Counted from the stretch's first letter, positions 2,030 to 24,000 are shown. The stretch is 24,000 bases of DNA from an uncultured Thermoanaerobaculia bacterium (GCA_964644635.1 CAZXXL010000020.1:163-24162), one strand, 5' to 3'. The notes: generated by a model not told the origin, from the letters alone. Numbers and translations are program-made.

Positions 2030-2323
2030 ATGAAAGCTCTCCCGGCGGCGATCCTCGTGCTCCTCCTCATCGTCACCGCGCTCGCCGTCTCGCGGCCCGA
2101 CCGCGCCAGCTTCGACCGCTTCATCGGCCGTGCCGCGGAGGCGCCGGACGGCAACCTCCTGCAACGGGCGGGGGCGGCGATCGCCACCCTGCAGGCCCAC
2201 CTGACGACCCAGTATCACGACCACGCCCTGTGGGCGACGGCCGAGGTCACCGTCGGCTCACGCCACGAGCGCTACCTCGGCGTCGCCGGCACCTGGATCC
2301 GTCTCGGCACCCATGGCAGGTAG
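2030..2323 (+). CDS. small hypothetical protein with N-terminal signal-anchor/TM helix
   Basis: I start it at the internal ATG 2030 (MKALPAAILVLLLIVTALAV...), not at the track's ATG 1928, which overlaps the preceding gene. It has a hydrophobic N-terminus and no SD. TATACT lies 6 nt upstream of the ATG. The 3' end overlaps the lnt start by 11 nt. Family not recognised with confidence. Confidence 0.55.
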   Translation: MKALPAAILVLLLIVTALAVSRPDRASFDRFIGRAAEAPDGNLLQRAGAAIATLQAHLTTQYHDHALWATAEVTVGSRHERYLGVAGTWIRLGTHGR

Positions 2324-3824
2324 CCGCGCGACCGGACCCGCCGGCCCCGACCGGCGCCTGTTGCCGTGGCTCGCCGCGGCCGGCGCCGGGGCGTCCTTCG
2401 CACTCTCCCTCCCGGGAGCCGGCATGGTGCCCCTGGTCCTGGCTTTCCCCGCGCTGCTCCTGGAGGCGGTGCACGCCGCCCGCCGCGGGCGCCGGGCGCT
2501 CCTGTACGGCTGGCTCGCCGGAGTTGTGTACTGGATCGTCGCCGCCAACTGGGTGACGCCGGTGATGCACCACTACGGGGGCCTGCCCGTCCTGCTCGCC
2601 GCCGGCTGTCTCCTCGCCATGGCGGCGCTGCTGGCCCTGACCTGGGCGGCGGCCGCCTGGGCGACCTTCCGCGTCCGGCCGTGGGCCAGGCCCTGGACCT
2701 TCGCCTTCGCCTGGATCGCGGCCGACGCCCTGCGCCGCTTCCCGCCGTACAACTTCCAGTGGAACCCGGCCGCCGCCGTCCTCTCCGGCACGCCCGCCCT
2801 GCTGGCGTCGCTGCCGGTCTGGGGGGCGACCGGGCTGAGCTGGGCCGTCGTGGCCCTCGGCGCCGGCCTGTGGGCCGTCATCCGTCCCCGGACCCGGAGA
2901 TCCGGCGCCGTCCTGGCGGCCGCGTCCGTGCTCGCCACCCTCGCCCTCGGCCTCGCCGCGCCGGCCGCCCGGCCACAGGGTCCGCCGGTGACGGTAGCCG
3001 CGATCCAGCCGGGGACGACCATCGCCGAGCGCTGGAACCCGGCGCGCGCGGACGCGATCTTCCGCCGGGCGGTGAGGCTCACCCGGCGCGCCGCGGCCAG
3101 GGGCGCCCGCCTGGTGGCGTGGCCGGAGAGCGCGGTCGTCTACAACGTGGAACGCGACCCGGCCTTCCGCGCCCGGCTGCAGGAGCTCGCCGGCGAGCTC
3201 GGTATCGCGATCGTGCTCAACTCCGTGGGCACGACGCCGGCCGGCGGGTACACCAACTCGGCCTACCTGGTGACGGCGGACGGGATCTCACCCCACCGCT
3301 ACGACAAGGTCCATCTCGTCCCCTTCGGCGAGTACGTCCCGTTCTTCGCCCGCTTCGCCTTCGCGCGCGGTCTGGTCCGCGAGGTGGGACGGTTCACGCC
3401 CGGACACGACCTCCGCCCGCTGACCGCCGGGCGGCTGCGCCTGGGGATGGCCATCTGCTTCGAGATCGTCTTCGGGGATCACGTGGCGGCCGAGGTCCGC
3501 CGTGGCGCCGACCTCCTCGTGACCATCAGCAACGACGCCTGGTACGGGTACTCCTGGGCCCCGCACCAGCACTTCGGCCAGGCCGTGCTGCGGGCCGTGG
3601 AGACCCGGCGCTGGGTGCTCCGCGCCGCGCTGACGGGGATCTCGGGCGTGATCGCGCCCGACGGCCGGGTGGTCGCCAAACTGGGGGTCGGCCGGCAAGG
3701 CGTCGTCGTCGAGCGGGTGGGGCTGTGTACCGGCGTCACGCCGCGGGTGCGTCTCGGCGACTGGTGGCTGGTCGTCTGCGCCCTCGGCACCCTGCTCCTG
3801 CTGCTCTCCGCGCGTCGCCGCTGA
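2313..3824 (+). CDS. lnt: apolipoprotein N-acyltransferase
   Basis: 503 aa with a multi-TM N-terminal half and a C-terminal CN-hydrolase domain. The characteristic Lnt blocks are present (VAAIQPG, VAWPESAV, KVHLVPFGEYVPF, MAICFEIVF with the catalytic Cys, SNDAWYG), followed by a final TM helix. Confidence 0.9.
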   Translation: MAGSRATGPAGPDRRLLPWLAAAGAGASFALSLPGAGMVPLVLAFPALLLEAVHAARRGRRALLYGWLAGVVYWIVAANWVTPVMHHYGGLPVLLAAGCLLAMAALLALTWAAAAWATFRVRPWARPWTFAFAWIAADALRRFPPYNFQWNPAAAVLSGTPALLASLPVWGATGLSWAVVALGAGLWAVIRPRTRRSGAVLAAASVLATLALGLAAPAARPQGPPVTVAAIQPGTTIAERWNPARADAIFRRAVRLTRRAAARGARLVAWPESAVVYNVERDPAFRARLQELAGELGIAIVLNSVGTTPAGGYTNSAYLVTADGISPHRYDKVHLVPFGEYVPFFARFAFARGLVREVGRFTPGHDLRPLTAGRLRLGMAICFEIVFGDHVAAEVRRGADLLVTISNDAWYGYSWAPHQHFGQAVLRAVETRRWVLRAALTGISGVIAPDGRVVAKLGVGRQGVVVERVGLCTGVTPRVRLGDWWLVVCALGTLLLLLSARRR

Positions 3825-3875
3825 ATCCCCGGCTGCCGGGAGGACCCCGGCGGCGGCCCGGCGGGCCGGCCCGGC

Positions 3876-4010
3876 TCACTCCTTGCCGTCGTCGTCCGCC
3901 GGCTCGCCCTGGCCCTTGCGCTTGCGTTCCAGCTTCTCCTGCCGCTTCTTCTGCTTCGCGAGCTCCTTCTGCCTCTTTTCGAACTTGTACGCGCCGCGTT
4001 TTCGTGCCAA
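3876..4010 (-). CDS. small highly basic Lys/Arg/Glu-rich protein (44 aa), TTG start, absent from the ORF track
   Basis: My own translation of the minus strand gives (M)ARKRGAYKFEKRQKELAKQKKRQEKLERKRKGQGEPADDDGKE*. A perfect AAGGAGG SD (4022..4016) sits 5 nt upstream of TTG 4010..4008. About 39 of 44 codons end in G/C, matching the coding bias of this genome. A candidate TGcTAGGGT promoter lies at 4040..4032. Confidence 0.5.
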   Translation of the reverse strand: MARKRGAYKFEKRQKELAKQKKRQEKLERKRKGQGEPADDDGKE

Positions 4011-4031
4011 TCGTCCCTCCTTTACCCCACG

Positions 4032-4040
4032 ACCCTAGCA
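4032..4040 (-). promoter_or_regulatory. candidate extended -10 promoter (TGcTAGGGT) for the small basic ORF
   Basis: The minus strand reads TGcTAGGGT. The predicted TSS is about 4025, just upstream of the AAGGAGG SD. The pattern matches the other TGnTA....T elements in this window. Confidence 0.3.
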
Positions 4041-4106
4041 GATCCGCCCGCACGGGTCTCCGGGAGCCCGTGACAGCGGCCCGCTCCTGCGGCGTCCGCT
4101 TCGCTC

Positions 4107-4115
4107 TGTTAGCAT
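4107..4115 (+). promoter_or_regulatory. candidate extended -10 promoter (TGtTAGCAT) for prfB
   Basis: TG-t-TAGCAT at 4107-4115, about 55 nt upstream of ATG 4171, in the divergent intergenic region shared with the small basic ORF. Confidence 0.35.
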
Positions 4116-4126
4116 ACGGTGATCGA

Positions 4127-4150
4127 CGGCGGCGCCGGCGGCGGCGCCGG
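4127..4150. repeat. perfect tandem duplication of a 12-mer (CGGCGGCGCCGG x2) in the prfB leader
   Basis: Read directly: 4127-4138 equals 4139-4150. Each unit contains the palindrome CGGCGCCG, so small alternative hairpins are possible. Functional meaning unknown. Confidence 0.9.
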
Positions 4151-4170
4151 TGGTGCGGGGGGAGCGGATC

Positions 4171-5287
4171 ATGCTCGACGAGATCATCCAACACGGCGAG
4201 GCCGAGCTCGAACGGATTCATCGCCTCCGGGGGTACCTTTGACGAGGACCGGCTGAGGGAGAGCCTGGCCGAGGCCGACGCCGAAGCCCAGGCTCCCGAC
4301 ATCTGGTCGGACCAGGAGCGGGCGCGGGAGGTCATGCGCCGGCGGAGCGCGCTCCAGAGCCGGGTCGAGACCGCCGCCCGGCTGCGGGAGGCGGCCGAGG
4401 AGCTGGAGATCCTCCTGGAGATGGCCCGCGAGGGAGAGGCCGGGATCGAGGAGGAGCTGTCGCGGACGCTCAGGAAGGTCGGCCCCCAGCTCGACCGGAT
4501 CGAGCTCGAGACCAAGATGACCGGCGAGCACGATGCCGCCAACGCCTACCTGGAGATCCACCCCGGCGCCGGCGGCACCGAGTCCCAGGACTGGGCCCAG
4601 ATGCTGGAGCGCCTGTACCTGCGCTGGTGTGAGCGGCGCGGGTTCGAGGCCGAGATCCTCGAGGAGCAGGCGGGCGAGGAGGCGGGCCTGAAGAGCGCCA
4701 CCATCCTCGTCCGCGGCCCCTACGCCTACGGCTACCTGAAGTCGGAAAACGGCGTCCATCGCCTGGTGCGGATCTCCCCCTTCGACGGCCAGTCCAGGCG
4801 CCACACGTCGTTCGCCTCGGTCCACGTCTACCCCGAGGTGGACGAGAACGTGGACATCGAGATCCCCGAGAAGGACCTGCGGATCGACCGCTACTGCTCC
4901 TCGGGACCGGGGGGGCAGGGCGTCAACACGACCTACTCCGCGGTGCGCCTGGTCCACCTGCCCACCGGCATCATCGTCACCTGCCAGAACGAGCGGTCCC
5001 AGATCAAGAACCTGGCCTCGGCGATGAAGGTCCTCAAGGCCCGCCTGTTCGAGCTCGAGCGCCAGAAGCGCGAGGAGGAAATGGCGAAGCTCAAGGGGCC
5101 CAAGAAGGACATCTCCTGGGGCAACCAGATCCGCTCCTACGTGCTTCAGCCCTACCGGCTGGTCAAGGACCTGCGGACGGGCTTCGAGGTGGGCGACACG
5201 GACCGGGTTCTCGACGGCGACATCGATCCCTTCATCGAGGCCTACCTGCACTGGCAGGCCCAGCAGCGCACGGAGAGTGTGTCATGA
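4171..5287 (+). CDS. prfB: peptide chain release factor 2, expressed through a +1 programmed ribosomal frameshift at 4240
   Basis: Frame 0 (4171-4239) encodes MLDEIIQHGEAELERIHRLRGYL and then hits in-frame TGA 4240-4242. The +1 frame from 4241 reads DEDRLRESL... and carries the SPF tripeptide (RISPFD), GGQ (SGPGGQG) and the full RF2 body to stop 5285-5287. GGGGGAG SD lies upstream of ATG 4171. Confidence 0.95.
4229..4243 (+). promoter_or_regulatory. prfB: RF2 autoregulatory +1 frameshift site (GGGGG-TAC-CTT-TGA-C)
   Basis: The internal SD-like GGGGG (4229-4233) is 3 nt before the slippery CTT (4237-4239), followed by TGA C. This is the same architecture as E. coli AGGGGGUAUCUUUGAC. Confidence 0.9.
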
Positions 5288-7098
5288 GGCAGTCCATCCT
5301 TCGTCGTGCGGCCCTGACGGTGGGCACGCTCATCATCGCGGCCGCCGCCCCGGCCCACGAGCCGCTTCACTACCGCGTCACCGCCGCCAACCCGGCGAAC
5401 CACTTCTTCCAGGTGGAGCTGAACGTGCCCCCGGCGGACGGCTGCCCGGACTTCGCCTACGCCGTCTGGACGCCCGGAGGCTACACCCTGCACCCCCACG
5501 CCGAGGACGTCCTCGACGTCACCTGCACCGCCCCCGACGGAGGACCGCTCAAGGTCGCCAAGACCGACCTCAACACCTGGCACGTGACCTGCAGTCCCGG
5601 CGGGGGTTATACGGCGCGGATCAGGATCCACGCCCTCGCCGACCGCACGCCCTACTCGGCCCACCTCGGCGCCGGGCTGCTCTTCGCCAACGGCGTCAGC
5701 ATCCTCCCCTACCTGCCCGCCGACCAGGACCTGCCGGCGGAGTTGACCATCGATCCGCCGCCGGGCTGGCCGCTGGTCTGCTCGCTGCCGGCGACCGCGC
5801 CCCACACCTTTCACGCCGGGAGCTGGGACGAGCTGGCGGATGCCATCTTCGCGGCGGCACCGGAGCTCACGGTCAGGAAGGTCCGGGCCGGCGCGGCGGA
5901 GCTGACCCTGGCCTTCACCGCCAGGCCGGCGCCCGGGATGGACATGGACACGATCGCCGAGGCCCACAAGAACCTCGTGCTCGCGGCCGGGAAGACCTTC
6001 GGCGGCATTCCCTTCGACCGCTACCTCTTCCTGTACAAGGTCGGCCCCAAGGGCTCCCACGGCGGGCTCGAGCACAGCTTCGGCACGGCCATGGGCATCC
6101 CCGCCTCGGCGTTGAAGTCGACCGACGCCATGCTCGGCGAGATGGGTCTGCCCGCCCACGAGCTGGTCCACGCGTGGAACGTCAAGCGCGCCCGGCCCGC
6201 CCAGCTTCGGCCCTACGACTACGCCCACGTGCGCCAGACCGACCTGCTCTGGGTCGCCGAGGGCTGGACGAGCTACTACGGCCCGTTGCTCCTGACCCGT
6301 TCGGGCGTGCGGACGCCGGAGCAGCTGTACGCGACCCTGACCCGCCGTCTCCGCTGGCACCGCCGCAACCCGGCGAATCGCTTTCTCTCGCTGCGCCAGA
6401 TCAGTCTCGGCTCCTGGCTCGACTGGTCGGTCCCGTTCTTCAGCTTCCGCAGCTACTACGTCAAGGGAAGCCTGGCCGGCCTCCAGCTCGACCTGCTCCT
6501 GCGCCGGGCCAGCGCCGGTCGTCACAGCCTGGACGACATCATGCGCGCGCTGCTCGCCGACCCCCAGCTCCGGCGCAACGGTTACACGGAGGCCGATCTC
6601 CGCTTCCTCGCCGGCAAGCTCGCCGGGCGTTCCATGGACGGCTGGTTCGCCGCCGCCGTCGACAGGCCCGGATACATCGATCTCGCCCCCTCGCTGGCCT
6701 CCGTGGGCCTGCGCCTGGTGCCGGATGAGGATCACCCGCTGGCCGGCTTCACGGGGATCCGCCTGGCGCCGGCCGGAGAGGGGAAACGGGGCGCGAAGAT
6801 CCGCTGGGTAGAGCCCTCGTCGCCGGCCGAGGAAGCCGGCCTCGGCGAGGGCGACACGCTGCTCGCCGTGAAGGGCCGGACCGGCGCCGCCGACCGGCTG
6901 GCCGGGCTCCTCGACCGGCTGGAGACCGGGAAGAAGGCGGTGCTGACCGTGCTCCGCGCCGACCGGGTGCTCGAGGTCACGGTGGTGCCCACGGCGGTCG
7001 AGCCCCTGCGCATGCCGGTGCGGATCGAGGAGGACCCGGACGCCACGGCCGAGCAGGTGGCCGCCCGCCGCGCCTGGCTCTGGTCGAAGGGCCGCTGA
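5284..7098 (+). CDS. secreted M61-family (glycyl aminopeptidase-like) metallopeptidase with C-terminal PDZ domain
   Basis: 604 aa. ATGA start/stop overlap with prfB. Signal peptide (MRQSILRRAALTVGTLIIAAAAPAHE). Zinc motif HELVHAWNVKR, typical of M61. PDZ-like segment (IRWVEPSSPAEEAGLGEGDTLLAVKG). Confidence 0.82.
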   Translation: MRQSILRRAALTVGTLIIAAAAPAHEPLHYRVTAANPANHFFQVELNVPPADGCPDFAYAVWTPGGYTLHPHAEDVLDVTCTAPDGGPLKVAKTDLNTWHVTCSPGGGYTARIRIHALADRTPYSAHLGAGLLFANGVSILPYLPADQDLPAELTIDPPPGWPLVCSLPATAPHTFHAGSWDELADAIFAAAPELTVRKVRAGAAELTLAFTARPAPGMDMDTIAEAHKNLVLAAGKTFGGIPFDRYLFLYKVGPKGSHGGLEHSFGTAMGIPASALKSTDAMLGEMGLPAHELVHAWNVKRARPAQLRPYDYAHVRQTDLLWVAEGWTSYYGPLLLTRSGVRTPEQLYATLTRRLRWHRRNPANRFLSLRQISLGSWLDWSVPFFSFRSYYVKGSLAGLQLDLLLRRASAGRHSLDDIMRALLADPQLRRNGYTEADLRFLAGKLAGRSMDGWFAAAVDRPGYIDLAPSLASVGLRLVPDEDHPLAGFTGIRLAPAGEGKRGAKIRWVEPSSPAEEAGLGEGDTLLAVKGRTGAADRLAGLLDRLETGKKAVLTVLRADRVLEVTVVPTAVEPLRMPVRIEEDPDATAEQVAARRAWLWSKGR

Positions 7099-15372: not shown

Positions 15373-15553
15373 CGCTGGTACGTAATGTCCACCGCCACCG
15401 GTCGGCCGGTCTCGTGACGCCCGCCGCCCCTGGCGGGCCCGTGTCCGGAGTGGGCCGGCATACTCACGGCACGAGGGTGGTTCTCGCCCGGCGGGCGCGG
15501 CCCGCCGGCGAGCCGCCGATCGTGGCGGGCGGAAGGAACGCGGACATGGGGTC

Positions 15554-15562
15554 ATTGTACCA
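15554..15562 (-). promoter_or_regulatory. candidate extended -10 promoter (TGgTACAAT) for the phoH-ybeY-era operon
   Basis: The minus strand reads cTGgTACAAT, 11-19 nt downstream of the pduO-type gene stop. This would give a GC-rich leader of about 175 nt before phoH ATG 15372. Confidence 0.35.
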
Positions 15563-15572
15563 GCCCACGGCG

Positions 15573-16136
15573 TCAGCCCCCCTCCTTCCCTGTTCCGGGC
15601 CAGGTCGTCTCCGCCATGCCGAGGCGCCGATTGAGGAGGCGGGCGAGCACGAAGAGCGCATCGGACAGGCGGTTGAGGTACCGCACGGCCTCGTCCACGC
15701 CCGGTTCCCCGGGTCCGACGGCCACCACCCGGCGCTCCGCCCGCCGGCACACGGTGCGGGCCAGGTGGGCGAGGGCGGCGGCCCGACAGCCGCCGGGGAG
15801 CACGAAGGATTTGAGCGCCGGCAGCTCACCGTCCATCTCGTCGATCCACGCTTCCAGCCGGGTGACATCGACGGCGGGAGCTCCCGCCGCCCTTCCCTCG
15901 GCGTCGGCGAGGCGGCCGCCGATCTCGAAGAGGGCTCGCTGCACGGACGCCAGGCGCTCGGGCACACCCTCCGGCAGGGGTTCGGTCGAAAGCAGCCCGA
16001 GCCACGAGCTCAGCTCGTCCACGGTGCCGTAGGCCTCGATCCTCGGGTCGGTCTTGGACACCCGGCCGCCCGAAAACAGAGAGGTCTCACCGCCGTCCCC
16101 ACTTCGCGTGTAGATCTTCACCCGGTCATGATACAT
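15573..16136 (-). CDS. PduO-type ATP:cob(I)alamin adenosyltransferase
   Basis: [14 protein letters not shown] near the N-terminus, [19 protein letters not shown] and [10 protein letters not shown] blocks typical of the PduO/MMAB family. The start may be GTG 16121 (VKIYT) rather than ATG 16136. Confidence 0.85.
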
Positions 16137-16176
16137 GCACCGTGACAGCCGGCGGCGCTCGGGCTACCCTGGGGGC

Positions 16177-18108
16177 ATGGACCGCCCCCGCCGGCTCTTG
16201 CGGCGCCTCGGCGTATCGGTGGCGCTTCTCGCCGCGGGGGCCGGCGTCGTCGCGGCCCAGACGCTGGAGATCTGGCAGATCCAGGGGCCGGGAATGGCCT
16301 CCCCTTGGGCCGGCCGACGGGTCACCACCGTCGACAACCCCGTGACCGCCGTGGCCGCCACCGGCTTCTTCATCCAGACGCCCACGGCGCGGAGCGACGG
16401 CGATCCGAACACGTCGGACGGCATCTTCGTCTACCTGGGCGGGCCGCCCGCGGTGCGGACGGGAGACCTGGTGGACGTGACCGGTACCGTGGTCGAGTTC
16501 GACGGGGTCACCGAGATCGCGACCAACCCCGTGGTCACCGTGACCGCCCACGGCGCGCCCCTGCCCCCGCCCGTGGACCTCGACGCCCGCCACCCCTCTC
16601 CCAACCGGCCGCAACCGGAAACCGAGCTCGAGCGCCTGGAGGGCATGCGCGTCCGGATCGCGACGGGTACCGTCACCGGCCCCACCGACCGGCACGGGAG
16701 CTTCGCCGTCGTCGCCAGGAGCACCAGGGCCTACCGGGAGGCCGGCATCGCCTTTCCCGGCCTGCCCGGGCTGCCGGTCTGGGACGGCAACCCGGAGATC
16801 CTCGAGGTCGATCCCGACGCCCTCGGCCTCCCCGACGTCGTCGCCGCCGCCGGGTCGCCGGTTACCGGCCTCGAAGGAGTGCTCACCTTCGCCTTCGGCC
16901 GTTACCGGATCTGGCCCCAGTCGCTCACGGTCGGCGCGGTCCCGGGCCCGGGCCCCGTTCGGCCGCGCGTGGCCGGCGAGCTCACCGTCGCCACCCAGAA
17001 CCTCGAACGCTTCTTCGACGATGCCGACGACCCCGCCACCGACGACACGGTCCTCGCCCCGGCCGAGCTCGAGACCCGGCTCGCCAAGGCCTCGCTCTGG
17101 ATTAGCGACGTCCTCCGCGGGCCGGACGTTCTGGCCGTCGAGGAGGTCGAGAACCTGGCCGTGCTCCGGCGCCTCGCCGACCGCGTGGCGACGGACGACC
17201 CCGCCCTCAAGTACACCGCCTACCTCGTCGACGGCCACGATCCCTCCGGCATCGACGTCGGCTTCCTGGTGCGCCCGTCCCTCGAGGTCCTGCGCGTCGA
17301 GCAGCTGGATGCCGGTGCGACGTTCACCTTCGGCGGCTCCACCTTCCCCACCTTCGACCGTCCGCCGCTGCTCATCGAGGTGCTGCCGGCAGGCGCGGAG
17401 GGCCCCGCCCCGCTGACCCTGGTCGCGGTGCACCTGAGGTCTCTCAACGGCATCGACGACCCCGCCAAGGGTCCCTTCGTGCGTACGAAGCGGTGGCAGG
17501 AGGCCGTCGCCCTCGCCCGTGACATCCAGGCCCTCCGGGCCGCCGACCCGGCGACGAAGCTCGTCGTGCTCGGCGATTTCAACGCCTTCGGTTTCACGGA
17601 CGGCTACGTCGACGTGATGGGACAGATCACCGGCCGGCCGGACCCGCTCGGCGCCCTCCTGCCGCCCGTTCCGGGCATCGTGGCGCCGCCGCTTTCGGAT
17701 GCCGTGTCGCTCCTGCCGCCGGCCGCACGCTACACCTTCGTCAACCGGGGCATCGCGGACGATCTCGACCACGTCCTCATGTCGCCATCGCTCTTCCCCT
17801 GGGTCCGGGGTGTCGCGGCCGGCCGCGGCAACGCCGACGCCCCGGTCTCCCTCGCCGACGAGCCGGGCACCGCCCTGCGCACGGCCGATCACGACGGCCT
17901 CGTGCTCTACCTGATGACCGACGCCGACGGCGACGGCGTGCCCGACGACCGCGAGCCCTCCGGGCCCCGGCCGCCACGACGGGCCGGCGGGCGGTCGCGC
18001 GCCGTCGGCGCCGCGGACGAAAAAGTGGCCGCGGCGTCGAGGGAGGACGGTTCCGCGGCCGGGAAAAGAGTAAGGATGGAGGGTCCCGTTTCGAGCTACA
18101 TACCGTAA
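16177..18108 (+). CDS. secreted ExeM/NucH-type extracellular nuclease (N-terminal OB-like domain + endonuclease/exonuclease/phosphatase domain)
   Basis: I start it at ATG 16177, preceded by GGGGG (MDRPRRLLRRLGVSVALLAAGAGVVAAQ signal peptide). It has IWQIQG...GFFIQTP...DGD.NTSDGIFVY...GDLVDVTGTVVEFDGVTEI, the ExeM/NucH N-terminal signature. EEP blocks follow (LTVATQNLERFF, VLGDFN, DHVL, ADHDG), then a Ca-binding-like DADGDGVPDD. The last ~55 aa are low-complexity. Confidence 0.8.
   Translation: MDRPRRLLRRLGVSVALLAAGAGVVAAQTLEIWQIQGPGMASPWAGRRVTTVDNPVTAVAATGFFIQTPTARSDGDPNTSDGIFVYLGGPPAVRTGDLVDVTGTVVEFDGVTEIATNPVVTVTAHGAPLPPPVDLDARHPSPNRPQPETELERLEGMRVRIATGTVTGPTDRHGSFAVVARSTRAYREAGIAFPGLPGLPVWDGNPEILEVDPDALGLPDVVAAAGSPVTGLEGVLTFAFGRYRIWPQSLTVGAVPGPGPVRPRVAGELTVATQNLERFFDDADDPATDDTVLAPAELETRLAKASLWISDVLRGPDVLAVEEVENLAVLRRLADRVATDDPALKYTAYLVDGHDPSGIDVGFLVRPSLEVLRVEQLDAGATFTFGGSTFPTFDRPPLLIEVLPAGAEGPAPLTLVAVHLRSLNGIDDPAKGPFVRTKRWQEAVALARDIQALRAADPATKLVVLGDFNAFGFTDGYVDVMGQITGRPDPLGALLPPVPGIVAPPLSDAVSLLPPAARYTFVNRGIADDLDHVLMSPSLFPWVRGVAAGRGNADAPVSLADEPGTALRTADHDGLVLYLMTDADGDGVPDDREPSGPRPPRRAGGRSRAVGAADEKVAAASREDGSAAGKRVRMEGPVSSYIP
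18019..18060 (-). terminator. intrinsic (Rho-independent) terminator of the sigma54-driven orphan gene
   Basis: The minus strand reads GGCCGCGG-aac-CGTC-ctccctc-GACG-CCGCGGCC followed by ACTTTTTCG. That is a 12-bp GC stem with one 3-nt bulge, a 7-nt loop and a T5 tract. It begins 36 nt after stop 18096. T-runs are very rare in this DNA. Confidence 0.6.
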
Positions 18109-18695
18109 AGCGGAGCCTGCCAGTCCTGCTCCGCGGCGAACGCCGCAAGGGTGGCGTCGAGCCTTTCGTAAAGCCCGCTGATGGAGCGCTCGATCCTCTC
18201 CACGGCCTCGACCAGGGCCGGCGGCGCAACCGGCCAGCGGGCGATCTCGGGCCGGGTCAGCGGATAGACGGTCACGAGTTGAACCCCCAGGAGGTACGGT
18301 GATCCCCGGAGAGAGACCGAGCGCAGCCGTGGAAACCAGTCGAGGACGGCCAGCGGCTCGCGCGGCCGGAAACATCCGGCGAAGGTCCGGAGGCCGATCC
18401 TCCAACCCTCGCCTTCAAGCTCCGGAGCCACGCCGGTGAGAAAGCCCAGGGCGGCGCGCTGCACCTCCTGGTCGTTGTCCCCCAGGTACCCGAAGACCGG
18501 AACCGGGATCCCCAGCACGAGGAAGCGCACGTCTCCGGCGGGGAGAACCGTCGATGCGAGGCCGCGACCGGTGGTGTAGACGGTGCCCGGAAAACAGCTC
18601 ACGAGCGAGCGCCCGAGAAACAGGACCTCGGACGCGAGATCCATGGCCGGCCTCTCCGGTACCCCCGCCTCGTGCCCTTTTTCCCAAACCTCCAT
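18096..18695 (-). CDS. hypothetical cytoplasmic protein (199 aa), no family recognised
   Basis: GGTGGAGGG SD lies 4 nt before ATG 18695. The composition is natural (W/F/Y/L/E-rich rather than R/G/P shadow). No TM helix or signal peptide. It is flanked by a sigma54 promoter upstream and an intrinsic terminator downstream. Confidence 0.62.
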   Translation of the reverse strand: MEVWEKGHEAGVPERPAMDLASEVLFLGRSLVSCFPGTVYTTGRGLASTVLPAGDVRFLVLGIPVPVFGYLGDNDQEVQRAALGFLTGVAPELEGEGWRIGLRTFAGCFRPREPLAVLDWFPRLRSVSLRGSPYLLGVQLVTVYPLTRPEIARWPVAPPALVEAVERIERSISGLYERLDATLAAFAAEQDWQAPLYGM

Positions 18696-18728
18696 CGGCC
18701 CTCCACCGTGACGCTCTCACCGACGCTC

Positions 18729-18746
18729 TAGCAAGGCGCGTGCCAG
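18729..18746 (-). promoter_or_regulatory. sigma54 (RpoN) -24/-12 promoter, CTGGCACgcgccTTGCTA
   Basis: The minus strand reads TGGCAC-N5-TTGC, an exact match to the canonical consensus. The predicted TSS is about 18719, roughly 24 nt upstream of ATG 18695. It lies immediately downstream of a sigma54 enhancer-binding-protein gene. Confidence 0.75.
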
Positions 18747-18879
18747 GTCACCCGGAGTCGGCAGGATCACTGTCACCACCGCGTCCTCGGCGTCCGCCAA
18801 CGGTTCGAGGGCCCGCGAGTGAAGCCCCCTGGAAACAGAATGTGTTAACTCACGGAATCGTGCGCCGGGAGCCGGCGGC

Positions 18880-20682
18880 TCACAGGCCGAGCCTGCGCAT
18901 CTTCTTGAAGAGCCCGGCGCGGCTGAGGCCCAGCCTGGCGGCGGCGGCGGTCCGGTTGCCGCCACACTCGGCGAGGCAGGCCTCGATCAGCCGGCGTTCG
19001 AACACGTCCCGCGCCTCGGCGAGGGACATCCCGGCGAAGACCGCCGGGTCCACGCCGGCGGTGGGGTGGCCTTGGGGGTCGGCCTCCCCCCCCAGCGAAA
19101 GGTGCCGCACGTCGATGATCGCCCCCGGCGTCACCGCCGCGACGGCCCGGATGATCTCGCTCTTCAGCTCGCGGACGTTGCCCGGCCAGTCGTGACCCTG
19201 GAGGCGTTCCAGGGCGCGGACGGTCACCCCGTTGATCGGCTTGTGCATCCTCGTCGCCGCTTCCTCCAGGAACGCGCTCACCAGGACCGGGATGTCCGGC
19301 CGGCGCTCGCGCAGGGGAGGCACGTGGATGCGCAGAACGTGCAGCCGGTAATACAGGTCGGCGCGGAAGCGGCCGGCGTCGACCTCCGCCTTGAGATCGC
19401 GGTTGGTCGCCGAGACGATGCGCACGTCGCAGCGGATCGGCGTGTCCTCGCCGACCCTGTAGAGCTCACCCTGCTCGAGCACCCGGAGCAGCTTGCCCTG
19501 CAGGGGCAACGGCAGGTCCCCGACCTCGTCGAGGAGGAGGGTGCCCCCCTCGGCCGCCTGGAACCTGCCCCGCCGCGGCTGGACGCCGGTCGCCGCCCCC
19601 GGCGCCACGCCGAAGAGCTCGGCCTCGATGAGCTCCGCCGGAATGGCCGCACAGTTCACCGCCACGAACGGCCCGCCGGATCGCGGCGAGAGCTCATGGA
19701 TCGCCCGGGCGAAGAGCTCCTTGCCGGTACCGCTCTCACCCGTGATCAGGACCGGCTCTTCCTGGGCGGCGAAGCGCTCCGCCAGCTGCTTGCAGCCGGT
19801 GATGGCGGCGGAGCTGCCAAGGATGGCGTCCAGCGCGGCGGCGCCGCCGGTCCCCGGCCGGTGGGGGCCCCCGGGGCGCTGAGGACGGCCCCTGCCCAGC
19901 GCGTTGAGGACGATGCGGACCGCCGCCGCCACCGCGCAGATGTCACCGGTGGCCGGCCTTTCCTCCCCGCACCGCAGCAGCAGCTCGTGCTCCCGGTTCA
20001 CGCGGGCCACGAGCAGGGGCCGACCTGCGACCGACGTCTCGCGTACGGTCTCGCCGCCGGCCGCGGCCAGGGCCTCGTCGGCGCCGGCGAGGCCGGCTCC
20101 GATGCTCCCCAGGTCGAGGTCGCCGGAGGCGGCCACCAGGGACAGACCGCCCCGGCCGCCGGAGTGGACGACGGCGGCCGCGGTGAAGTGAAACTTCTCC
20201 ACGACCCAGCGGAGCAGGTCCGCCACCGAGACCCGCTCGGCGCACGCCGCGCTCATCTCCAGAAGCGCCACCATGTCCTCGATGTCGGCCACGGCCCGGA
20301 AGTGGGCGGTTCCCTCGCTCCCCGTCCCTTGCTCGGCCGCCGGAGCCGTCGGGCGGATCTCCGGCGCCAGGGCGAATGTCCCCGAGGAGACCTCCACGAT
20401 GGTGAGCCGCGCCGACGAGAGCATGATCTCGTCCCCGGGGCGAAGCTCTGCGGAGTTGACCGACACGCCGTTGACGAACGTCCCGTTCTTGCTGTTGAGA
20501 TCGGTGACGTGGAAGCGGCCGTGATCGGCGCGGAGCACCGCGTGGTTGCGGGAGACGTCCTTCTGGGGGATCACGATGTCGTTGCCGCTGCGCGAACCGA
20601 GCCGGTACGTCCGGCCGGCCTTGAGCTCGAACCGTTGCTCCCCAAGTTCCGGATGGTCGTAGATGAGCAGGTACCGACCCAT
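18880..20682 (-). CDS. sigma54-interaction-domain transcriptional regulator with N-terminal FHA domain, central GAF-like domain and C-terminal Fis-type HTH
   Basis: FHA blocks (YRLGSRSGNDIVI, VSRNHAVL, DLNSKNGTFVNG). AAA+ sigma54 domain (LITGESGTGKELFARAIH, GGTLLLDEVGDL, VRIVSATNRDL, FRADLYYRL, WPGNVRELKSEI). HTH (GNRTAAAARLGLSRAGLFKKMRRLGL). The GAFTGA loop reads GAATGV. Confidence 0.9.
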   Translation of the reverse strand: MGRYLLIYDHPELGEQRFELKAGRTYRLGSRSGNDIVIPQKDVSRNHAVLRADHGRFHVTDLNSKNGTFVNGVSVNSAELRPGDEIMLSSARLTIVEVSSGTFALAPEIRPTAPAAEQGTGSEGTAHFRAVADIEDMVALLEMSAACAERVSVADLLRWVVEKFHFTAAAVVHSGGRGGLSLVAASGDLDLGSIGAGLAGADEALAAAGGETVRETSVAGRPLLVARVNREHELLLRCGEERPATGDICAVAAAVRIVLNALGRGRPQRPGGPHRPGTGGAAALDAILGSSAAITGCKQLAERFAAQEEPVLITGESGTGKELFARAIHELSPRSGGPFVAVNCAAIPAELIEAELFGVAPGAATGVQPRRGRFQAAEGGTLLLDEVGDLPLPLQGKLLRVLEQGELYRVGEDTPIRCDVRIVSATNRDLKAEVDAGRFRADLYYRLHVLRIHVPPLRERRPDIPVLVSAFLEEAATRMHKPINGVTVRALERLQGHDWPGNVRELKSEIIRAVAAVTPGAIIDVRHLSLGGEADPQGHPTAGVDPAVFAGMSLAEARDVFERRLIEACLAECGGNRTAAAARLGLSRAGLFKKMRRLGL

Positions 20683-20715
20683 GGCCGCAGTGTACCGCGG
20701 ATGCCGGGCCGCGCG

Positions 20716-21867
20716 CTACGAGCCCAAGGCTGCCCTCACCATGTCGGCCGTGATCGTGACCCTGTAGGCGCCGTCTCCCATCTCCTCGAGATGCTCGCTG
20801 TGCCAGGGATCGAACTCCAGGGGATTGACGATGCGGCCGAAGATCGCGCGGAGGGCACGGGCCCCGGTGCGGGTATGCTTGGCGGCTTCTTCCGCGATCA
20901 GCGCGGCCGCGAGATCCTCGATCTCGAGCGAGATGTTCATGACCTCGAAGTACCGTCGCGAGCGGACGAACGGCGAATCCAGGGACTCGAGCAGGATCGC
21001 CTTCAGGACGTCTCCACCCAGGTCCTTGAGCATGACGATGTTGTCGAACCGGGCCAGGAACTGGGGGACCATCCCGTACTCGAACAGGTCTTCGTCCTTG
21101 AGGAAGTCCGCGAGTGCGAACCGGGTCTCGATCCGTACCGTCCCGTCCGCGGAACGGATGGCCTGGCTCTTGAGCTTCTCGCCGCTGCCGGGCTTGATGA
21201 CGCGCAGGTACACCTGGTCGTAAAGCCCTTCGAAGGCCCCGCCGCAGATGAACATCATCCGCCCGGTGTCCACGTCCAGCGTCACCTGCTGCTCCTCGCC
21301 GTCGACCACGGCGAAGGTCCGGTAGGCGACCTTCTCGCCCTCCATCAGGGTGAGCAGCCCCTGCTGGAGCACGACGCCGATGGCGTTCGGCTTGCCGGCC
21401 ACCACCGCCGCCATCTTGTCGATCTCGTCGATACAGATCGTGGCCCGTTCCATGGCGGCCGTGAGCTCCTCGGCCGTGGCCCTGGGACCGAGTAGGGCGC
21501 GGGCGCGCTGCTCGGCGGCGGTGAGCAGGCGGTCCGGCCGGAACTCCATCCGGTCCGAGTCCACCAGGAGGTTGGCGTTGACGATGGTCATGGCCCGGAA
21601 GGGGCGGTACTCCGGAATGTCGTGGTACAGCCGCCCGATGTTGTTCATGATCGTCGTCTTGCCGGTGCCGGAGCTGCCGATGAGCAGGATGTTGCCGGGC
21701 ACCTTCCCGGTCACGTGCTTGTACACGGCCACCGCGACGTAACGCAGGGCCGCGTCCTGGCCGAGCACCCCCCGTTTCAGCTCCACGAAGATCTCCGCCG
21801 GCGTGATCGCGGCGAGCTCGCGGGGCCGGCCCCCGCCGGCCGCCGCGCCGCCTTCCCCAACCGTCAT
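20716..21867 (-). CDS. ClpX-family AAA+ ATPase lacking the zinc-binding domain, GYVG pore loop, RKH loop and IGF ClpP-docking loop
   Basis: Block-by-block similarity to ClpX: ITPAEIFVELKRGVLGQDAALRYVAVAVYKH, NILLIGSSGTGKT (Walker A), ICIDEIDK (Walker B), VLQQGLLTLMEG, MFICGGAFEGL (sensor 1), GMVPQFLARF, TGARALRAIF (sensor 2). AAGGAGG SD lies 6 nt before ATG 21867. Confidence 0.85.
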   Translation of the reverse strand: MTVGEGGAAAGGGRPRELAAITPAEIFVELKRGVLGQDAALRYVAVAVYKHVTGKVPGNILLIGSSGTGKTTIMNNIGRLYHDIPEYRPFRAMTIVNANLLVDSDRMEFRPDRLLTAAEQRARALLGPRATAEELTAAMERATICIDEIDKMAAVVAGKPNAIGVVLQQGLLTLMEGEKVAYRTFAVVDGEEQQVTLDVDTGRMMFICGGAFEGLYDQVYLRVIKPGSGEKLKSQAIRSADGTVRIETRFALADFLKDEDLFEYGMVPQFLARFDNIVMLKDLGGDVLKAILLESLDSPFVRSRRYFEVMNISLEIEDLAAALIAEEAAKHTRTGARALRAIFGRIVNPLEFDPWHSEHLEEMGDGAYRVTITADMVRAALGS

Positions 21868-21868
21868 C

Positions 21869-23065
21869 TCATGCCTCCTTGACCCAGACCCCGCCGCGGG
21901 GCACCAGCCGCACGCCGTCGATGTGCACGGACCGCCCGCAGCCCCCGGGCCGGAAATCGGTCACGATGTCCACGTGCTGGGCCGACCTGTTCAGGCTCCG
22001 CGCCTTCTCGAGCTCGGCGATCTTCGCCCTGCCGGCCTCCGAGGCCGGATCCTCGACGTAGCACTCTTCGTAGCTGGCGCCGATGGCGATGTGCAGCGTG
22101 CCGCCAACCTTCTCCACGAAGAGCGGATGCCTGAGCACCCGGTCGAGGCCGGGGTTCATCCCCAGGGCGACCTCGCCGAGCCGGTGGGATCCCTCGTCGG
22201 TCTCGACGATGGTCTCGAGGTATTCCTGGCCGGTCTCTGCCGAGTAGCCGACGATCCGCCCGCCCTCGAACCGGAGATGGATCCCCTGGATGTCGTGCCC
22301 GCCGTAGTTCACCGGCAGGTCCACGAAGATCTCGCCCTCCACCGAGCGCGCATCGGGGCTGGTGAAGACCTCCCCGTCCGGGAAGTTGCGCAGGCCGTAG
22401 GAGAGCACGGCCCGGCTCGGCGACAGGTCCATCCTCAGCTCGAGCCGCCTGCCGTCCCGGGGATCCTCGGTGACGATGACGATCTCCCGCCCGGCGTCGA
22501 AGAGCGGCGCGATCCTCTCCTCCGCCTCCTTCAACGGCGCCGGGTCCTGGGTCGACGCCCGCACGATGAAGGCGGCGTACTCCTCGACGTCCATCCCCTC
22601 CATGGCGGCCGCCGCGGGGGTGGGGAACAGCGTGATGACCCACGGCTTGCCGAGGCGGATGTCGGCGAACGGCCGGTCGGCCGCGGCCAGCCGCTGGGCC
22701 TGCTCCGCCTCCAGGCCGGAAGTGAGGGCCGGGTCCTCGGCGCCCAGGACCTCGACGTACTTGGTCATGCTCCGGTAACGCTCGCCGTGCCACTCGGGGA
22801 TCCGCTCCAGCTGCTCCGGGCTGCCCCAGCGGCCCATGGCGGCCGACCAGACCCGGCCGCGCTCGTTGTTGGGCGGGATCAGGTAGACGTCGGGGACCGC
22901 CCCGGCCTGGATCACCCGCCTTTCCAGGACCGCCATCAGCGGCCACGCGATCCTCTCGCCCTTGATCATCACCCGGTCCCCGGGCTCGATCCCGCCCAGG
23001 GAATGGTCGAGAAGGTATCCGGCCCAGGTCTCCAGGTCCTGTGCATCGATCGTGATCTCCTGCAT
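21869..23065 (-). CDS. M29-family aminopeptidase (AmpS/AmpT/PepS-like)
   Basis: 398 aa with the family metal-ligand blocks NFPDGEVFTSP, RLGEVALGMN, GTLHIAIG and SAQHVDIV. Confidence 0.88.
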   Translation of the reverse strand: MQEITIDAQDLETWAGYLLDHSLGGIEPGDRVMIKGERIAWPLMAVLERRVIQAGAVPDVYLIPPNNERGRVWSAAMGRWGSPEQLERIPEWHGERYRSMTKYVEVLGAEDPALTSGLEAEQAQRLAAADRPFADIRLGKPWVITLFPTPAAAAMEGMDVEEYAAFIVRASTQDPAPLKEAEERIAPLFDAGREIVIVTEDPRDGRRLELRMDLSPSRAVLSYGLRNFPDGEVFTSPDARSVEGEIFVDLPVNYGGHDIQGIHLRFEGGRIVGYSAETGQEYLETIVETDEGSHRLGEVALGMNPGLDRVLRHPLFVEKVGGTLHIAIGASYEECYVEDPASEAGRAKIAELEKARSLNRSAQHVDIVTDFRPGGCGRSVHIDGVRLVPRGGVWVKEA

Positions 23066-23082: not shown

Positions 23083-24000
23083 CTACGGCTTCTTGGCGTT
23101 CACGTCCGCGCCCGCCGGCTTGCCGGGAGCCTTCTCCCGGGACAGCCGGAGGGTGCGGGGTATCCTGCCCCGGCCCGACCGCGTCCGGCGGACGACGATG
23201 ACCGGAACGCTCACCGTCGGGCGCGACGGATCGTCCGTCCGGATCGTCACCGTCGCCCGCAGCGACCCCCAGTGCGCCGCCGCGGCCCTGGCGTTGTCGA
23301 GGGTGACGCGGAGGTCGTGGGTGACCGCGGCGGCGGCGGAGCCGGCCGTCACGCCGATCAGGTCCGGATGGTCGCTGACGGCGCTCAGGATCCGGAAGGG
23401 CTTTCGCCCGCCGTGCGTGAGGCGGAGGATGCGCCACACCTCCTTGCCGCCCTGGTTGGGCAACACGAAGCGGATCCGGGGGGGCGCCGGCTCGATCAGC
23501 GGCCGGATGCGGAGGGAGACCGGAATGTCGAGCTTCGCCCGGCCCGGTACGTTGGTTCGCAGCGCCAGCGAGCCGGAACGCACCACCGGCTGCGCGTCGC
23601 CGGGAATCTCCGCGATCAGCCACAGGTCGCCGGGAACGGCGTGTACGCCCCGGATGGACGTCGCCTTCGTCACCGCGGCGAAGCGCACCCGCAGGGGCGC
23701 CGGCACCGACTCGACCTCGAGCACCCTGAGCGGCCTGCCGTCCCTCCGGTGGAGCAACAGCCGCGACCAGACGCCGCGGCCCTCCTGTGTCGTCAGCCAG
23801 ATCCGCTGGGAGGGCGTCATCACGATCGGCGCCTCCACCTTCGCGGTCAGGCGCAGCATCACGGTGCGCAGCCCGGGATCGTCCGTGAAGACCCGAATGG
23901 TCTTCGAGATGCGTCCGTTCTGCCGGGGCGACGTGTGGACCTTCGCGACGAGCTTTCCCGACCCACCTGCCGGGATGACCGAGTCGTGCTCGGCCACCGT
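23083..24000 (-). CDS. DUF1573-like, multi-Ig-fold protein (5'-truncated by the window edge)
   Basis: The frame stays open to position 24000. The first visible segment (IPAGGSGKLVAKVHTSP...ISKTIRVFTDDPGLRTVMLRLTAKV) matches the C-terminal half of a DUF1573 unit. Two more beta-rich repeats end in ...TIRTDDPSRPTVSVPVIV. The C-terminal tail is basic. Confidence 0.65.
   Translation of the reverse strand, partial: TVAEHDSVIPAGGSGKLVAKVHTSPRQNGRISKTIRVFTDDPGLRTVMLRLTAKVEAPIVMTPSQRIWLTTQEGRGVWSRLLLHRRDGRPLRVLEVESVPAPLRVRFAAVTKATSIRGVHAVPGDLWLIAEIPGDAQPVVRSGSLALRTNVPGRAKLDIPVSLRIRPLIEPAPPRIRFVLPNQGGKEVWRILRLTHGGRKPFRILSAVSDHPDLIGVTAGSAAAAVTHDLRVTLDNARAAAAHWGSLRATVTIRTDDPSRPTVSVPVIVVRRTRSGRGRIPRTLRLSREKAPGKPAGADVNAKKP

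Follow-up and report, generated by a model that had tools for sequence, protein, structure and literature searches.

Does an exact sigma-54 (−24/−12) promoter motif in an uncultured Thermoanaerobaculia bacterium mark a genuine regulated gene, and is the regulator encoded beside it the activator? The motif lies in a stretch of 24,000 nucleotides (GCA_964644635.1, CAZXXL010000020.1:163-24162), here called the window, between the gene of a sigma-54-type enhancer-binding protein (EBP) with an FHA domain and an open reading frame (ORF) for a 199-aa orphan protein. Judged by sequence comparison, the site is a genuine, selectively maintained promoter, and it probably belongs to a conserved self-contained sigma-54 unit that operates by the mechanism proposed below. 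Positions are counted from the first nucleotide of the window.

Sigma-54 promoter site

The promoter and the transcribed region comprise the following features:
18729..18746, minus strand: sigma-54 (−24/−12) promoter CTGGCACGCGCCTTGCTA, assigned from the exact consensus and conservation in 9/9 loci
18696..18719, minus strand: predicted 24-nt leader with the Shine-Dalgarno (SD) sequence GGAGGG (18704..18699), read from the sequence
18096..18695, minus strand: 199-aa orphan protein, acidic, soluble, alpha/beta, assigned from G+C content at third versus second codon positions (0.82 versus 0.50), homologues and an AlphaFold2 model

A pattern scan of the window placed TGGCAC-N5-TTGC at 18745..18731 on the minus strand. 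The preliminary description had called this a perfect site, and CTGGCACGCGCCTTGCTA (18746..18729) indeed has all consensus positions in the correct orientation; all 13 specified positions of the extended consensus YTGGCACG-N4-TTGCW are matched as well. In TGGCACGCGCCTTGCT (18745..18730, minus) the GG and GC are exactly 10 nt apart, as the definition of a sigma-54 promoter requires. The exact motif had also been described as unique, and it occurs once in the window (71% G+C), where mononucleotide composition predicts 0.04 chance occurrences on both strands and a first-order Markov simulation 0.01. Only two one-mismatch sites were found, at 1883(+) and 5578(+). Both are inside coding regions, an Oxidored_FMN gene (85-1998) and an M61 peptidase gene (5284-7098), respectively, and were ruled out as promoters. 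An automatic promoter scan of 15500-21000 found no sigma-70-like site.

The site is intergenic and correctly oriented, within the 184 nt that separate the EBP stop codon (18882..18880) from the start of the orphan ORF; that stop codon and the C of CTGG are 133 nt apart. Since the −12 GC lies at 18732/18731, the transcription start site (TSS) is predicted near 18719. The distance from the −12 C to the ATG (18695..18693) is 36 nt, with GGAGG at 18704..18700. The geometry given earlier (133 nt from the EBP stop, a leader of about 24 nt, GGAGG, ATG and a TSS near 18719) therefore holds throughout.

Conservation of the promoter in homologous loci

Homologous loci were gathered by exact protein look-up (L001, L008, L009), by a back-translated protein search of metagenomes with a 6-sequence alignment (L011-L016), and with a DNA pattern taken from the 3′ element (L006, an Acidobacteriota metagenome-assembled genome, MAG). 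Nine independent loci with upstream DNA, including the window, entered the promoter comparison, with the following sites:
Window: TGGCACgcgccTTGCT
L001: TGGCATgctatTTGCT
L011: TGGTATcgaacTTGCA
L006: TGGTACagaacTTGCT
L013: TGGAACgggacTTGCT
L015: TGGAACgacccTTGCT
L016: TGGTACgggacTTGCT
L009: TGGAACggcccTTGCT
L008: TGGCACacaagTTGCG

The pattern TGGnA[C/T]-N5-TTGC was present at the equivalent place in 9/9 loci, including those found via the protein alone. TGG, A and TTGC are invariant, the spacing of GG and GC is exactly 10 nt in every locus, and two lineages have TGGCAC-N5-TTGC in full. The 16-nt promoter core carries 1.39 bits per position, compared with 0.41 and 0.46 in the flanks. The promoter stands 14-55 nt from the called start codon over the loci (32-41 nt in six), and GGAGGG-N3-4-ATGGA is also present in L006 and L011. 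Because the proteins of these loci are only 24-51% identical, the promoter motif is under selection. This 9/9 conservation is the strongest non-experimental support for the genuine −24/−12 promoter stated above, and we infer that the promoter depends on sigma-54 in vivo. The transcription unit occurs in a small group of bacteria, probably Acidobacteriota. Within this phylum, A. capsulatum, S. usitatus and Ca. K. versatilis all carry rpoN, and cultured Acidobacteria have 6-23 EBPs (PMC3162934 supplement).

The orphan protein

The 199-aa protein had been said to belong to no recognised family, and the searches bear this out. No match was found in Pfam, NCBIfam or PADLOC, Pfam was likewise empty for all 12 family members, and a profile search against PDB sequences returned no relative. 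A word-indexed search of 5.8 billion proteins recovered only the orphan itself and one 51%-identical protein, while an exhaustive comparison of an HMMER profile with 1.84 billion representatives yielded 10 genuine relatives of ~200 aa and one repeat artefact. Invariant residues are grouped in LLG-QLVT-x-P ... WP-x-P ... D, and the family alignment contains no conserved catalytic-looking motif. The pI of the orphan is 5.0; 11 of the 12 family members fall between 5.0 and 6.7, and one has a value of 8.6. The ORF is clearly under protein-level selection and represents a real but very rare family.

AlphaFold2 with 12 sequences gave a confident alpha/beta fold with long helices at the end (predicted local distance difference test, pLDDT, 83.7; predicted template-modelling score, pTM, 0.80). 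Foldseek returned nothing below E = 0.04 in the PDB or E = 0.025 in BFVD. The top matches were type III secretion system (T3SS) class I chaperones (ExsC, InvB, SigE, SpcU), ARPC2 and PprA, which are likewise small acidic alpha/beta proteins. At E values of 0.04-0.8, TM-scores of 0.23-0.50 and root-mean-square deviations of 7-13 Å, these matches give no basis for membership, and T3SS chaperones, ARPC2, PprA and HIT proteins were rejected as relatives, the matches being weak and insignificant. The remote-homology and structure searches suggested earlier have produced about 10 clusters of unannotated relatives and a confident fold, with no significant match to anything known.

A conserved RNA motif in the 3′ untranslated region

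Downstream of the orphan stop codon, the 3′ untranslated region (3′UTR) of ~75 nt contains two elements:
18073..18085, minus strand: single-stranded box GACCCUCCAUCCU, 10 nt past the stop codon, unpaired in the local fold
18020..18060, minus strand: terminator hairpin GGCCGCGG/CCGCGGCC with the conserved loop CCGUCCUCCCUC and a following U-run, assigned from covariation, RNAalifold and a covariance model

The outer stem of the terminator is formed by GGCCGCGG (18060..18053) and CCGCGGCC (18034..18027); AC and then TTTTT (18024..18020) come after it. With its 8-bp GC stem, 4 inner pairs and ACUUUUU, the structure is an intrinsic terminator; an automatic terminator scan with a loop limit of 8 nt had passed over it. 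The clean intrinsic terminator of the preliminary description is thus confirmed as to hairpin and U-run and has to be amended in that the hairpin belongs to a larger conserved RNA motif.

This motif of ~66 nt follows the stop codon directly in 10/10 loci, at these coordinates where listed:
Window: 18020-18085(−)
L001: 825-890
L006: 3759-3822
L008: 1284-1349
L009: 733-803
L011: 727-798
L013: 4573-4641
L015: 4558-4626
L016: 4592-4662

The order of elements is the same in all ten: box GACCCUCCAUCCU, a short U-rich spacer, the GC-rich hairpin and the U-run. The box is identical in 9/10 loci, with one base changed in L012, at the low protein identities given above. The loop is CCGUCCUCCCUC in eight loci, UUCCCUCCCUC in L009 and GCAGUCCCUUCC in L008. 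The stems differ by paired changes, as in GGCCGCGG/CCGCGGCC, GUGACCGUGGG/CCCACGGUCAC, GUGGCUGCGAG/CUCGCAGCCAC and GUGGCCGCCC/GGGCGGCCAC; compensatory double changes affect 7/11 stem pairs and one-sided changes none. The observed covariation score was reached in 0/500 shuffles and collapsed in slid controls, and RNAalifold independently predicted the same helix. Covariance model R1 scored 68-87 bits with one match per locus and matched nowhere else in 64 kb. By these measures, the 3′ motif is more conserved than the orphan protein. Both conserved single-stranded parts, box and loop, contain CCUCC, the core of the anti-SD sequence.

Rfam gave no gathering-level match for the motif in the window or in L001; below that threshold, DUF805b alone came up, with 14.6 bits and E = 0.49, and it lies on the other strand. 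The motif pattern was not found in viral contigs. A dispersed repeat was rejected, the motif being single-copy in the window and in each locus. A pattern CCTCCATCCTCCTCCATCCTT ... CCGTCCTCCCTC at 658-720 of L007, another Acidobacteria MAG, scored 10 bits, has neither hairpin nor orphan gene and is probably a chance match. Preservation as coding sequence for the C-terminus of the convergent nuclease (described below) was excluded, as homology of that protein stops 50 residues before its end and no nuclease gene overlies the motif in L001, L006 and L016. A leader or riboswitch for the downstream gene was dismissed too, since the downstream genes differ and are often convergent.

The box can pair with the beginning of its own mRNA. 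Duplex energies with orphan translation-initiation regions ranged from −21.0 to −8.3 kcal/mol, and 5/9 of these regions paired better than all 24 control translation-initiation regions drawn from gene calls (Mann-Whitney p = 0.002). L009 has a 13-bp match to the box (−22.9 kcal/mol) just inside the annotated ORF. In minimum free energy folds of the whole ~700-nt transcript, the box pairs with the first 40 nt in 5/9 loci (window, L001, L006, L015, L009), compared with a background of 2.5% of 13-nt windows.

Several results count against such self-pairing as the function of the element. Boxes shuffled in place often pair likewise, nearly as often in L001 and L009, and shuffled leaders were not much worse than the real ones in several loci; the pairing signal between 5′ and 3′ ends is partly compositional. 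Moreover, an invariant box facing variable leaders points to a conserved trans partner or many targets rather than pure self-pairing. As to a protein partner, the orphan is an unlikely ligand of the motif because it is acidic. Taken together, we regard a riboregulatory role of the 3′ element as likely.

An alternative that overlaps with this assignment makes the RNA the important product: a 3′-derived small RNA (sRNA) or dual-function mRNA, whose anti-SD-like seeds would act on other mRNAs while the ORF would be a carrier or secondary. The invariant box beside divergent proteins, the covarying stem with its fixed loop and the two exposed CCUCC-containing stretches all suit this explanation, and it has a precedent in ccaF1-CcsR, a protein gene followed by 3′UTR sRNAs with CCUCCUCCC motifs (PMC8034643). 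The ORF, however, is clearly under protein-level selection and yields a confident fold, each locus has a single copy of the motif, and the putative small RNA is not known to have a processing site, a promoter of its own or a target. We consider this explanation unlikely on balance, but the best placed of the alternatives.

The adjacent FHA regulator

18880..20682, minus strand: 600-aa regulator with FHA domain, unassigned mid domain, sigma-54-type AAA+ module and HTH_8, assigned with Pfam

The regulator gene closes an operon that also encodes an M29 peptidase and a ClpX-like ATPase. Pfam identified Sigma54_activat (PF00158, 2.3e-63), FHA (PF00498, 1.6e-19), AAA_lid_14 and, at residues 560-597, HTH_8 (9.8e-13), a C-terminal DNA-binding helix-turn-helix (HTH). 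The AAA+ domain is ~45-50% identical to solved EBP AAA+ domains (E = 1e-66), and its ATPase motifs and arginine fingers are intact (Walker A GESGTGKE, Walker B LLLDEVGD, FRADLYYRL). The FHA sequence contains GSR, SRNH and SKNGT. A model of residues 1-290 had low confidence (pLDDT 56.9); its FHA part matched GarA, OdhI and Rv0020c (Foldseek E = 5e-6, target-normalised TM-score ~0.7), a likeness to phosphothreonine readers of the GarA/OdhI type, and its mid domain bore a weak likeness to Roadblock/MglB and GAF folds. From the domain content, a phosphothreonine input to the regulator is plausible.

The L1 loop of the AAA+ module departs from the canonical GAFTGA. Residues 377-382 (window 19537-19554, minus) read GAATGV, and ELFGVAPGAATGV of the regulator aligns to ELFGHEKGAFTGA of NifA, ZraR and FlrA. 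The Thr of the motif is kept, and GAATGV is common to all five orthologues with the region visible, including L006, L013, L015 and L016. In PspF, F85 and T86 touch sigma-54 region I, and p-benzoylphenylalanine (pBpa) at any single GAFTGA position abolished open-complex formation (PMC3467059). Two deviating EBPs in the supplement of Francke et al. 2011, from Solibacter usitatus (gi 116625691, ELFGIEKGVATG-V) and Bdellovibrio bacteriovorus (gi 42523371, ELFGVVKGAATG-T), resemble the window regulator in having an ELFG-x3-G(A/V)ATG(V/T) loop one residue shorter, and one of them comes from Acidobacteria (PMC3162934). Both had been discounted there as probably non-functional, with no assigned promoter (PMC3162934), whereas the variant EBP of the window co-occurs with a conserved sigma-54 promoter.

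Link between the regulator and the cassette

An orthologous FHA-EBP (50-60% identity) adjoins the promoter-ORF-terminator cassette in 6/6 loci with visible flanks (window, L006, L008, L013, L015, L016). In L016 the whole cassette (3766-4662) has been turned round between the EBP and nuclease genes: it is convergent with the EBP and has the nuclease gene upstream, but its two flanking genes are those of the window. The inversion shows that the cassette is an autonomous unit, in agreement with the earlier claim of a self-contained transcription unit. An invertible switch was considered for L016 and rejected, as no convincing flanking inverted repeats were found.

A search with the N-terminal 290 residues of the EBP also recovered proteins P0017, P0018 and P0019, in which HTH_8 follows straight after the FHA and mid domains and the AAA+ module is missing. 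These AAA-less regulators are located as follows:
L017: 5110-6192
L018: 1725-2789
L019 and L020: further AAA-less regulators

L017 and L018-L020 share with the AAA+ relatives an operon of M29 peptidase, ClpX-like protein, ~227-aa protein and regulator. Reading of the sequence placed an RNase P RNA gene downstream of the AAA-less regulators in place of the cassette, and their contigs contained no sigma-54-like site, orphan homologue or 3′ motif. The AAA+ module and the cassette are thus found together in six loci and are both absent in two lineages. Because of this co-occurrence and co-loss, the link between EBP and cassette is well supported despite the atypical L1 loop.

A tentative upstream activator site (UAS) was located between the two genes:
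18831..18849, minus strand: candidate UAS GTTAACAC-N5-GTTTCC, ~104 nt upstream of the −24 element

Copies of GTTRAC(AC) precede the −24 element by 80-105 nt in the window (18849..18842), L006 (twice), L008, L015 and L016 (three times). The window and L008 share GTTRACAC-N5-GTTTCC, L008 having GTTGACAC-N5-GTTTCC at ~537-555, and the GTTRACAC repeats of L016 (3803-3833) travelled with the inverted cassette.

The adjacent FHA-EBP is, in our view, fairly probably the activator of the cassette promoter. The points that tell against this part of the mechanism concern the regulator, its site and its setting. With GAATGV in place of GAFTGA, the regulator lacks a defining feature of sigma-54 activators, the supposedly essential Phe. 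Changes of the central Phe/Thr "mostly abolish" activation (PMC3162934), and a 2025 survey called GAFTGA invariant and used it as a filter, by which such homologues were discarded (PMC12316311). The UAS motif emerged post hoc, correction for 593 tests left no individual 6-mer significant, and L013 has only one-mismatch versions of GTTRAC and no exact form. Domain annotation identified no Ser/Thr kinase in the 24-kb window, and the rpoN support for the window is at phylum level only. The absence of the cassette from AAA-less lineages was read from contigs of 2.5-13 kb. The earlier proposal that the orphan protein is the output of this EBP through sigma-54 has accordingly gained from the 6/6 synteny and the co-loss in two lineages; with GAATGV in the L1 loop, it draws on co-occurrence and departs from the standard case.

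The same loop underlies a second alternative, in which the promoter is sigma-54-dependent but driven by another, canonical GAFTGA EBP, and the GAATGV neighbour is a sigma-54-independent DNA-binding regulator of the TyrR/DhaR/HupR/VpsR kind that represses, modulates or merely adjoins the cassette. The deviating homologues TyrR, DhaR and HupR act with sigma-70, and Solibacter GVATGV and Bdellovibrio GAATGT are listed among deviating EBPs (PMC3162934), in line with the reported effects of central Phe/Thr changes. On the other side, the AAA+ domain is otherwise intact with 55-60% identity among orthologues and retains the Thr of the L1 motif, the AAA+ module tracks the cassette in presence and absence, and the cassette remains beside the EBP gene even after inversion; we judge this alternative rather improbable. 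Finally, TGG..N..TTGC could have arisen by chance or be an operator for HTH_8 of the adjacent regulator, with the gene read from an unrecognised sigma-70-type promoter, given a TSS that is only predicted, the atypical L1 loop and poorly charted Acidobacteriota promoter types, but the invariant GG/GC and 10-nt spacing in 9/9 loci, the full consensus in two lineages, a non-palindromic motif unlike the site expected of an HTH_8 dimer, a distance and orientation to the start codon that fit a promoter, the lack of a sigma-70-like site in the scanned region and the chance expectation of 0.01-0.04 make this very improbable.

Proposed mechanism

For the FHA-EBP-driven cassette, we propose the following course of events. 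Sigma-54 holoenzyme would bind TGGCAC-N5-TTGC (18745..18731, minus), whose opening would need an AAA+ activator. This would most likely be the adjacent FHA-EBP with its non-canonical L1 loop GAATGV, binding ~100 bp upstream at the candidate GTTAACAC-N5-GTTTCC via HTH_8. Transcription from near 18719 would give an mRNA of ~700 nt, made up of the 24-nt leader with a strong SD, the ORF for the acidic alpha/beta protein and a 3′UTR of ~75 nt. The latter would expose two C/U-rich anti-SD-like sequences, box GACCCUCCAUCCU and loop CCGUCCUCCCUC, the loop in the intrinsic terminator. As a putative riboregulator, the 3′ element may loop back onto the purine-rich region where translation of the same mRNA is initiated; alternatively, a small RNA derived from the 3′UTR may be released and pair with SD regions. 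The identity of the activator, the UAS, the FHA/phosphothreonine input and the functions of protein and RNA motif are what we infer from sequence and structure comparison.

Relation to known systems and significance

In itself, a sigma-54 promoter next to an EBP gene is nothing unusual. The pspF-pspA, norR-norVW and rtcR-rtcBA pairs likewise have an EBP gene next to a single −24/−12 promoter, an EBP with a Fis-type HTH_8 C-terminus, and 130-350 bp of upstream region available for an enhancer site. The window locus differs from them in the GAATGV loop, the sensory part of FHA plus alpha/beta domain, and a single orphan target with a 3′UTR RNA motif. FHA-domain EBPs are reportedly found in Myxococcus xanthus, described by Jelsbak et al. 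in 2005, a paper cited in PMC12288465 and PMC6971385. Like the window regulator, those have an N-terminal FHA domain, a sigma-54 AAA+ module and an HTH, implying Ser/Thr kinase input; the likeness is one of architecture, and the window regulator comes from another phylum, has an extra mid domain and has a non-canonical L1 loop.

The nearest precedent for the 3′ element is ccaF1-CcsR1-4 of Rhodobacter sphaeroides, where a stress-type alternative-sigma promoter precedes a small protein gene and 3′UTR hairpins with exposed CCUCC-rich loops before the terminator (PMC8034643). Other C-rich sRNAs of the anti-SD-like type are close to it too. There is no sequence or protein homology between the R. 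sphaeroides locus and the cassette: the orphan has 199 aa, is acidic and is not a DUF1127 protein. A single hairpin with a linear box stands against the four repeats of CcsR1-4, and a sigma-54 promoter against one for RpoHI/HII.

The interest of the locus lies in the ensemble of GAATGV EBP, autonomous cassette, orphan fold and undescribed 3′UTR motif. GAFTGA decides which AAA+ regulators count as sigma-54 activators in surveys (PMC3162934, PMC12316311), and the GAATGV clade co-evolves with a textbook −24/−12 promoter that is gone where the AAA+ module is absent. Our boldest proposal, offered tentatively and as less likely than not, is that this clade is a working sigma-54 activator dedicated to one cassette, mobile within its locus, that yields a new fold-level orphan protein and an undescribed structured 3′UTR riboregulator with invariant anti-SD-like seeds. 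If the clade is active, surveys discard real activators, and the role of the L1 Phe would need re-examination with non-proteobacterial sigma-54. The RNA motif is new, with covariation support and an invariant 13-nt single-stranded box; it is tied to one gene family and absent from Rfam, and wider searches can start from the calibrated model R1 and ten instances. The unannotated family of ~10 clusters gains a promoter, a candidate regulator and a neighbouring operon of ClpX-like protein and M29 peptidase as an experimental handle.

Genomic surroundings

The neighbouring genes of the cassette and regulator are:
20716-21867, minus strand: ClpX-like AAA+ protein with no zinc finger, in the operon with the regulator
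21869-23065, minus strand: M29 peptidase, in the same operon
23083-23997, minus strand: 304-aa protein, first gene of the operon, weak OS_HP2 match
16135-18108, plus strand: convergent ExeM/NucH-like nuclease ORF, by domain annotation

The nuclease ORF overlaps the orphan stop codon by 13 nt and covers the terminator in full. Of its 657 residues, the first 607 mark the extent of homology to the L016 orthologue, and the 50-aa tail (17959-18108, plus) is unconserved; judging from the alignment, the tail is probably read-through to the first available stop codon in GC-rich DNA. The 304-aa protein weakly resembles the C-terminal part of OS_HP2, an NCBIfam (seleno)protein family, with a score of 35 bits against a cut-off of 100.

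In most relatives the ClpX-like gene and the regulator are separated by a gene for a conserved protein of ~227 aa, which had no Pfam or PADLOC match; the window and L006 lack it. Its coordinates are:
L013: 1000-1680
L015: 1006-1686
L016: 6577-7257(−)
L017: 4427-5110
L018: 980-1672

The remaining genes of the window are housekeeping genes: cobalamin adenosyltransferase, PhoH, a 7TM-HD protein, YbeY, CorC, Era, an MgtC-like protein, RF-2 and Lnt. A 973-aa RF-2 ORF was called at 2366-5287, with domains in its last third only, and lnt at 2313-3824; CTTTGAC stands at 4237-4243(+), just upstream of the PCRF/RF-1 domains. A programmed +1 frameshift in prfB is well known, and both CTTTGAC and the layout of the RF-2 ORF are consistent with it.

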